A stretch of 63,958 bases of DNA, the filler included, from Collodictyon triciliatum (lineage: Eukaryota): NCBI GenBank assembly GCA_043381765.1. It is 6 parts of 6 records of this genome, joined end to end, with 100 filler letters (N's around TTAATTAATTAA, not from the genome) between each part and the next. Parts side by side here need not be neighbours in the genome. Positions count along the whole stretch, not along the records: positions 43,343 to 52,769 come from JBHJMP010000264.1; 5 more parts are not named here. One strand, 5' to 3'. Positions 46,769 through 48,645 of the stretch are shown here, one piece after another. The first letter of the stretch is position 1, and each line of letters begins with the position of its first letter. Below the pieces are notes generated by a model. That model worked only from the letters and a program-made list of their open reading frames with translations. It was not told the origin of the DNA and did not search any database. A program made the position numbers and the translations under genes.

Positions 46769-47605
46769 GAAACGAAAACTGGAAGCAGCCACAGAGAAGG
46801 CCAATGTAGATGACATGACTCTGGATGATATCAACCCGACTCCAGGAAGATTGATGGCTTTGTCTTTGGCAAAAGAATCGCTGGCGTTAAACTTGCAAAG
46901 AACGAACGGCAAGTAAAAGCTCCGCAAAAGAATACACCCGCCAAGCAGACAAGCAGCAACAGAGACAAGGAAGCCAAGGCCAGGCAATATCAGAGTCCGC
47001 AAGACTCACAACAGATCCGCGCATACAGCGACAGCGACGATGACATACAAGGAAATCTCGGTTCCTCTTCAGAATCCTCGTACTCAAGCACTCCACCGCC
47101 AACACCGAACAAGCCCGCACATCGCAAGACCCAAGAGCAGCGCATCTCCAAACCCCCGAAAGAAATCCCCCCTTAAACTACCCATTCAGACTGACATGAA
47201 TATGGTTAGCATAGGAGGCCTCGAGGCAGTCTTTGTTACATATCCGAAAGTATACTCCAAAGCGAAGGCATCACAAGAACCATCGCCCACCAAAGATAGT
47301 CCGTTTATTATTCACCAGCCCGTCTTTGAATCGAATAAAGGAAAAAAAAAATTGTTCACCAGCCCGTCGCACCGAGAACCAAGGAGCATGAGCAAACAGC
47401 ACAAGTCGAATCCAAGATTGGAACTCCACACACCAAAGACAGTCCGAGCAAGCAGGAGCGTATGTTTCTAAAACCACAAACGCATAGCCATACTCCGGTT
47501 AAGCAAAGTCCACTGCCGGCTACGCATGGTCCCGAAACCAGGGGACGGTCAAGCGCCACTTTCATTGAATACCAGATAAACAACGATGTGTCGCTTTTTG
47601 TCTGA
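46769..47605 (+). pseudogene. Frameshifted fragment of a low-complexity S/P/K-rich protein gene
   Basis: Starts at an acceptor (catag|G). Coding-like reading hops frames at about 46830 and 47155 and at the 44-bp insertion 47325-47368. No upstream exons are apparent before the divergent VWA gene. Confidence 0.6.
47307..47368 (+). mobile_element. Micro-insertion, copy A (TTTGAATCGAATAAAGGAAAAAAAAA, 47325-47350) with target-site duplication
   Basis: ATTATTCACCAGCCCGTC (47307-47324) and ATTGTTCACCAGCCCGTC (47351-47368): 18 bp with one mismatch and a 14-bp perfect core. Removing insert plus one repeat restores the reading frame. Confidence 0.85.
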
Positions 47606-47959
47606 ATATCCCAGCAAGAAATACAAGGAAAGTGACCCGCTATCCCTTCAAATGACTCATCCTGTGGAATGAAATAGGATGTAAACCTTGTCTGAGATAG
47701 ATGGTTGAAAGGACTTGTCTGAATCGATTCTCGAAGCAACTGCAATGTGCGCACTTTCATCGACCCGACAACTTTATTCACTCTTCTGTCAGTCTCGAAT
47801 ACAACAAGAAATCACGTTGGAGTTGAACCACTTCGGGTAGAATAGTCTGCATGTGAAAACACTATTTTCTGTATTTTCTTCTCTCTTTTTTCTTTTTCCT
47901 TCCTCTTCCAAAATACAAAACCTCCAACCACACTATCTGGGTTTTCCACTGTCTTGTCC

Positions 47960-48645
47960 ACAGCTCATTTTTGTCCCAGAGATGAAGGCGGTTTCCTCAG
48001 CTTTGTTTCCCCTCAATTAACTGTTGAAAGGAATTTTTTTAATCCAAATGAAGCAAACACCTAGATCTAAAGAAGGCATGCACAATCGCAGCAAAGGCCA
48101 GCAACGAGACAGATATCCACACCCTTGAGTAAGTATCGCTTCTCAACGATTAAAAATTCAACCTAGATATATTTATATTCGTGCATCATATGGGATAACC
48201 TCGCTTCAATTTGAATCGAATAAAGGAAAAAAATATTCGTGCATCATCTTTCTTCATCTAAATACTTGTCTTTCTCAAGAATGAACCTACTTTGAATGCA
48301 AAGCGAGATAATTTTTTTCTGAACGATTAAGATAGTATGCGACGAACATGAGCATTTTTGTATTTGTCTGTAGAAGCTTTAAGGCATGATTTATTTTGAA
48401 ATCACTGCGGATGCTTCCTTGACAAACATGTCTTGTCACCATGGCAATCACAGCACAGAGTATCATCATAAATGAAAATATCAATAATAATACTACTTGT
48501 TGAGATGAAATCACGAAATTGTGTTTCTCTTCCCAACGTAAATCCAAAAATAAAGCTGGCCGATACCATAACTTATGTGCATCTCCAATCAGTTTCATAA
48601 TTAATAAGGAGTGACAGGCTAACAAACGCGACCGAAGTAGCATCC
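47960..48645 (-). pseudogene. Possible decayed multi-exon membrane-protein gene fragment
   Basis: A series of AG/GT-bounded segments encoding hydrophobic stretches (VVLLLIFSFMMILCAVIAM; RVWISVSLLAFAAIVHAFF) with in-frame stops; no family recognised. Confidence 0.35.
48175..48247 (+). mobile_element. Micro-insertion, copy B (ATGGGATAACCTCGCTTCAATTTGAATCGAATAAAGGAAAAAA, 48190-48232) with target-site duplication
   Basis: Perfect 15-bp direct repeat ATATTCGTGCATCAT at 48175-48189 and 48233-48247; the 3' end matches copy A. Confidence 0.85.

Follow-up and report, generated by a model that had tools for sequence, protein, structure and literature searches.

Micro-copies of a LINE 3′ terminus, two of them within clean target-site duplications, in the genome of Collodictyon triciliatum

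The tiny inserts described here from the genome of Collodictyon triciliatum are the exact 3′ terminus of a LINE, sharing one 3′ end and differing at their 5′ ends, with clean duplications around two of them. With a probability of roughly 0.87, we take them to be copies that were dead on arrival, left by an L1-like non-LTR retrotransposon through target-primed reverse transcription (TPRT); which type of endonuclease acted, in what order the steps followed and why synthesis ended early are what we infer. The mechanism itself is textbook LINE biology, and the unusual part is the shortness of the copies.

The window, i.e., the whole stretch of DNA analysed, comprises 63,958 nucleotides, filler included, of assembly GCA_043381765.1; it has a G+C content of 35.7% and contains spliceosomal introns. 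It also holds five N44-TTAATTAATTAA-N44 blocks, which are six-frame-stop contig linkers (8686–8785, 30588–30687, 43243–43342, 52770–52869 and 60764–60863), each with a simple repeat on at least one side, along with five plain 100-N gaps and three other N runs of 32, 454 and 660 nt.

The 16-mer TTTGAATCGAATAAAG occurs exactly three times in the window, starting at 27482, 47325 and 48210 and always on the plus strand, and once more with two mismatches at 8471–8486 on the minus strand. These four matches compare with 0.32 expected, and none of 100 shuffles contained four or more. The first-pass annotation had described two inserts about 870 bp apart with a shared 3′ end, each within its own unrelated direct repeat, and reading through positions 47200–48360 confirmed this anatomy. 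Insert 1 (47325–47351, plus strand, 27 nt) is composed of TTTGAATCGAATAAAGG (47325–47341) and A10 (47342–47351), and lies between a left target-site duplication, TTATTCACCAGCCCGTC (47308–47324, plus strand), and a right one, TTGTTCACCAGCCCGTC (47352–47368, plus strand). These direct repeats differ by one mismatch and are 17 nt long or, with the A in front of them included, the 18 nt originally given. Insert 1 represents the last 17 nt of the LINE 3′ UTR, AATAAA included, plus A10, and is 100% identical to the tail of L002, the metagenome contig that carries the source element. Insert 2 (48190–48232, plus strand) is composed of ATGGGATAACCTCGCTTCAA-TTTGAATCGAATAAAGG (48190–48226) and A6-7, corresponding to the last 37 nt of the 3′ UTR, with 93% identity to the L002 tail over 45 nt (3 of 45 positions differ). 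Its duplication, ATATTCGTGCATCAT, is found at 48175–48189 and 48233–48247 on the plus strand, the first A of the right copy being equally assignable to the A tail. As had been claimed, this repeat is 15 nt long and perfect, and TTT|AT is the pre-insertion site in both cases; the two inserts have duplications of different sequence. At the 5′ junctions, the last base of the duplication (C for insert 1, T for insert 2) also precedes the copy in L002, amounting to 0–1 nt of microhomology.

The whole window was scanned for exact direct-repeat pairs of at least 12 nt with spacers of 14–120 nt. All except six of the 124 pairs recovered fall inside three tandem arrays (23046–23756, 44040–44331 and 60864–60962), and the only non-array pairs that reach at least 14 nt and are not of low complexity are the two flanking inserts 1 and 2. 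Such a 14-mer repeat turned up in 10 of 100 simulated windows of the same dinucleotide make-up, with a mean of 0.12 per window, and because of this rarity we regard the duplications of inserts 1 and 2 as real. The array at 23046–23756 is a minisatellite with a 12-nt unit (GATTAAAAGAAT and GATTAAAATGAC variants) that is open on both strands and yields long spurious ORFs. A further configuration of a 12-nt direct repeat, AAAGGGAAAACT, around a 53-nt insert with GTAAGT at its start and AATAAAAAAAAGAAAAAA at its end is present at 36008–36084 (plus strand); this insert could represent a small retrocopy of some other element, or be intron-related.

The source was sought by scanning a metagenome collection for the 21-mer TTTGAATCGAATAAAGGAAAA, which returned four loci. 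One of them, L002, is the element; the other three (L001, L003 and L004) look like chance or bacterial matches in unrelated DNA and were rejected as copies of it. The same 21-mer gave no locus in the viral contig collection, and the five loci in the genome-contig collection (L005–L009) all belong to Flavobacteriia-type bacteria and are unrelated to the LINE. Its single occurrences in a number of Flavobacteriia-type genomes and in two metagenome contigs (L005–L009, L001 and L004) may reflect one conserved bacterial gene. Contig L002 is 1157 nt long; on its minus strand, the C-terminal end of a LINE ORF2 is followed by a stop codon and then by a 3′ UTR of 93 nt. The ORF2 end is split into two overlapping open frames with one frameshift between them, and the 202-residue frame matches Pfam zf-RVT (PF13966; 32.4 bits against a cut-off of 27.5) with a CX2CX8HX4C (CCHC) knuckle. 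The 3′ UTR ends ...ATGGCATAACCTCGCTACAC-TTTGAATCGAATAAAGG-A10, which can also be written ...CCCCTTTGTATGGCATAACCTCGCTACAC-TTTGAATCGAATAAAGG followed by ten A, and the last 161 nt of the element show no folding beyond that of shuffles (z = −0.23). The earlier proposal that the small inserts are footprints of a retroposon has therefore gained its source, a LINE whose ORF2 C-terminus carries zf-RVT and whose 3′ end is precisely this motif plus A10.

Copies in the window have a common 3′ end but various 5′ ends, forming a nested 5′-truncation series. Aligned to the same L002 end, their element-derived lengths are at least 525 nt (about 684 nt expected) for a long copy (1–525, minus strand), 37 nt for insert 2, 20 nt for copy 4 (8463–8489, minus strand) and 17 nt each for insert 1 and copy 3 (27481–27497, plus strand). 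Copy 3 is 100% identical to the L002 tail and has no A tail. With its flanks it occupies 27460–27510 on the plus strand, where the repeats GATTTTTTAAAC (27460–27471) and GATTTTTTTTAAAC (27497–27510) surround 25 nt made up of 9 nt unlike the LINE (TATATTTGT) and then C-TTTGAATCGAATAAA(G). These repeats, 12 and 14 nt long with a 2-T indel, make a weaker case than those of inserts 1 and 2. Copy 4, diverged to 90% identity over 30 nt, occupies 8457–8505 with its flanks on the minus strand and reads CAC-TTTAAATCGGATAAAGG plus an A7 tail (8489–8463). It has six extra bases and a possible 10-nt direct repeat, AAAATAAAGT (8505–8496 and 8466–8457), a weak duplication because the sequence is A-rich. The count of three copies in about 60 kb given at first thus stands as three exact 16-mer matches, but the copy at 27482 lacks an A tail and a fourth, diverged copy exists at 8457–8505 (minus strand). 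Across the four tiny copies the target sites are TTT|AT, TTT|AT, AAT|GA and TTC|AA, and the A tails, where present, vary from A6-7 in insert 2 to A10 in insert 1 and in L002.

The long copy at the left edge of the window is a 5′-truncated copy of the source LINE that encodes the ORF2 C-terminal part with its CCHC zinc knuckle. Positions 1–525 (minus strand) are 94.1% identical to L002 over 525 nt, an ORF at 229–675 (minus strand) reads ...NISNRELWIGACVVHAATTSPECTLCHSGDDSIEHTVLKC..., and 11 related protein fragments all align from 525 down to 10; its zf-RVT match, 22.9 bits, is below the cut-off of 27.5. Since the copy lies on the minus strand, its 3′ end and A tail are off the left edge. In L002, the motif ends 159 nt beyond the equivalent of window position 1, and by comparison with that contig the long copy would end in the motif and an A tail 159 nt past the edge, giving the expected length of about 684 nt. 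Whether a LINE at 1–545 ends in the motif, a question raised in the first-pass annotation, can accordingly be answered for the related L002 (94% over 525 nt), which does, but not for the window copy, whose 3′ end is outside. The run A9 at 552–560 is not the tail of this LINE, given the minus-strand ORF at 229–675 and matches that descend from 525 to 10. The stretch 526–560 (plus strand), ...CTAATAAACGGG plus A9, adjoins the 5′-truncated end of the minus-strand LINE. It looks like a further AATAAA-plus-A tail, in the opposite orientation to that LINE, and no duplication flanking it turned up. A tblastn search with 22 related protein fragments revealed no other LINE bodies in the window.

Contigs of four public runs from three studies (X1, X2, X3 and X5) were compared with window positions 45500–50500. 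The source organism is present in these runs: X1 and X2 match single-copy parts at about 99% (e.g., 3 other letters in 424) and the freshwater metagenomes X3 and X5 hold pieces identical to the window. X1 and X2 contain spliced RNA, since a contig of both skips 45633–45819 with CT..AC ends, i.e., a GT..AG intron on the minus strand; our guess is that they are RNA runs. This 187-nt intron interrupts a VWA-domain gene (ORF 45089–45712, minus strand) and is confirmed by the spliced contigs. The runs cover 45500–50500 in part, with 46502–46835, 48339–48505 and other stretches bare, and the empty-site evidence they provide concerns insert 1. For insert 2, next to which the DNA was thinly covered, the contigs gave neither a junction across the insert nor an empty site.

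Insert 1 is located within a transcribed host repeat (46901–48033, plus strand), over which the depth in X1 and X2 is 315–2537 per bin versus about 0–10 in the flanks. The repeat belongs to no Pfam or Rfam family. It looks like a 5′-truncated poly-A retroelement, because other copies continue upstream of 46901 with one common sequence (agreement 0.96–1.0) that the window copy lacks, and because the sequence of one X5 contig terminates in ACC plus A12 beyond its equivalent of 48033. The end of the host repeat (...TTGAAAGGAA) is loosely like the LINE tail (...AATAAAGGAA). In all four runs, host-repeat contigs skip 47308–47358 and carry seven other letters instead (CCCTGCC and variants), a net difference of −44 nt, and in one contig of X2 the skipped stretch is precisely 44 nt, ten letters fitting both sides. 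As 44 nt equals the 27-nt insert 1 plus one 17-nt copy of the duplication, these paralogous host-repeat copies are empty sites, and insert 1 is a nested insertion. The first-pass annotation had suggested a search for empty-site alleles; the empty sites seen here are paralogous, from other copies of the repeat, and not alleles of the same locus. Insert 1 would also shift a long, putatively coding open frame of the host repeat, because removal of the 44 nt would join the open frame at 46917–47471 with that of 47339–47605 (window 46917–47605, plus strand). Further downstream, 13 contigs (5, 5, 2 and 1 in X1, X2, X5 and X3, respectively) stop matching just after 48233 and continue unlike the window (agreement 0.52–0.63); the LINE tail therefore ends at the same base at many loci.

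TPRT offers a coherent account of these features. A LINE endonuclease would nick the bottom strand at a T-rich/A step, and the LINE RNA would be reverse-transcribed starting from its A tail, with the freed 3′ end as primer. Judging from the copies, synthesis would stop after just 17–37 nt of 3′ UTR; the short cDNA would be joined to the upstream end with 0–3 nt of microhomology or a few filler bases, and a staggered second nick 10–17 nt away would generate the target-site duplication. Target-site duplications, poly-A tails and 5′ truncation are named as TPRT hallmarks in PMC12016303, and PMC2912911 discusses aborted intermediates healed by end joining. The initial description of the inserts as 3′-anchored, variably 5′-truncated, A-tailed TPRT copies is supported by the L002 tail, the nested series, the duplications and the paralogous empty site of insert 1.

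The template could instead have been a short non-autonomous partner, i.e., a SINE or other transcript that shares at least the last 37 nt of the LINE and is moved by LINE proteins, in which case the tiny copies would be truncated or whole copies of that partner. The copies consist of tail sequence only, and the body of their template is therefore indistinguishable; the starting points of three of the four differ by no more than 3 nt, as from a short RNA with a fixed 5′ end, and insert 2 departs from L002 at the 3 positions noted above. However, no such partner was seen: the only tRNA that ARAGORN reports in the window is a tRNA-Lys, and a Pol III head of the SINE kind (tRNA, 7SL or 5S) is absent, with no tRNA-like sequence in or beside the inserts and no Rfam match above the gathering score in 46500–48400. 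Moreover, insert 2 contains another 20 nt that also match the LINE UTR. We know of no SINE as short as an RNA of 17–20 nt plus a tail, and Platy-1, the shortest primate SINE in a literature listing, is reportedly about 100 bp long. We accordingly consider a partner template improbable.

Still less probable is endonuclease-independent capture, in which fragments of LINE cDNA or RNA serve as filler during the repair of staggered double-strand breaks. Such events usually lack duplications and are often 3′-truncated. The missing A tail and nine filler-like bases of copy 3, as well as the extra bases and weak duplication of copy 4, would suit this explanation, whereas the clean 15–17 nt duplications, the A tails and the common TTT|AT junction of inserts 1 and 2 argue against it. 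Endonuclease-independent L1 insertion is described in PMC1920257. An adaptor, vector or assembly chimera, conceivable in a draft assembly with many gaps and linkers, can practically be dismissed, as the same tail ends the LINE in the independent metagenome contig L002, contiguous with coding LINE sequence, and recurs in contigs of the four runs from three studies.

Turning back to the LINE as the source of the tiny copies, we searched the L002 frame against 1.84 billion representative proteins and obtained 14 matches. Seven of them are short fragments with 59–98% identity, and four (P0009–P0012) are proteins of 1226–1275 aa with 29–38% identity, all containing Exo_endo_phos and RVT_1 and three of the four a weak zf-RVT as well; zf-RVT also exceeds its cut-off in P0001, P0002, P0015 and P0016. 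P0009, the best of the four long relatives, matches human LINE-1 ORF2p with an E value of 3.4e-57 over residues 3–871, and R2 proteins over the RT only. Among fragments of the LINE family, P0023 aligns to P0009 residues 701–882 (E 3e-30), overlapping the end of its RVT_1 domain (502–749), and P0015 is colinear with residues 975–1196 (E 3e-18). Because its fragments are colinear with P0009, the family would be L1-like from the RT end to the C-terminus. The fragments reach just the end of the RT: Pfam gives no RVT_1 in P0023–P0025, no RT core or endonuclease sequence was seen among the family's fragments, and the protein searches found no longer proteins of the family. Of the earlier designation as an APE-type LINE, the LINE source holds, but the endonuclease type would have to be read across from the distant full-length relatives with their Exo_endo_phos domains (P0009–P0012).

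Three of the four tiny copies stop 17–20 nt from the A tail, and no shorter AAAGG-A(5+) tails were found in the window outside low-complexity DNA. RNA folding of the element's end does not account for the stop either. It is an unlikely generalisation from four copies that the family leaves mostly micro-copies with a preferred stop at 17–20 nt. If true genome-wide, the preferred stop would point to a discrete early checkpoint in TPRT, e.g., template release at the first RNA-DNA hybrid length, and to a large population of 25–45 nt inserts that repeat finders cannot see, each bringing AATAAA into genes or other repeats. Even duplication-flanked inserts of 25–45 nt, which fall well short of the usual thresholds of repeat finders, can be assigned to a source element as retrotransposition events, and small insertions in a compact genome could commonly be micro-copies that have been overlooked. 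In the case of insert 1, a transcribed repeat is lengthened by 44 nt, and each insert comes with a ready-made AATAAA signal. The literature searched yielded neither the motif nor reports of extremely short truncated LINE copies. The value of the present case is in annotation, together with one hint of a preferred early stop.

Among known systems, TRE3-type LINEs of dictyostelid amoebae target tRNA genes. The long copy is alike in that its 5′ end lies 100 nt downstream of the window's only tRNA gene by ARAGORN, but that gene is not close to any of the four tiny copies, and one in five copies with such a neighbour argues against a tRNA-targeted (TRE-like) LINE with a fixed distance from tRNA genes. 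The gene in question, tRNA-Lys(CTT) at 625–697 (minus strand), is on the same strand as the long copy, and its proximity may be coincidence, given that the tiny copies lie elsewhere. L1-type LINEs with APE, RT and a C-terminal CCHC, such as mammalian LINE-1, resemble the window LINE in several features: they share the CX2CX8HX4C knuckle (zf-RVT), AATAAA plus an A tail, variable 10–17 nt duplications, a 3′-anchored 5′-truncation series and, as far as four sites can suggest, insertion at T-rich/A steps, and the distant full-length relatives of the window LINE match human L1 ORF2p from the endonuclease through the RT. The window LINE differs in having little sequence identity with named proteins; our searches brought up no relative with a name, and the nearest full-length relatives stand at about 30%. 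The classical L1 target is TT|AAAA, whereas the junctions of inserts 1 and 2 read TTT|AT, with four sites in all. Another difference from human L1 is in length: four of the five window copies carry just 17–37 nt of the element, whereas median human L1 inserts are given as 394 bp (somatic) and 1240 bp (germline) in PMC12016303.
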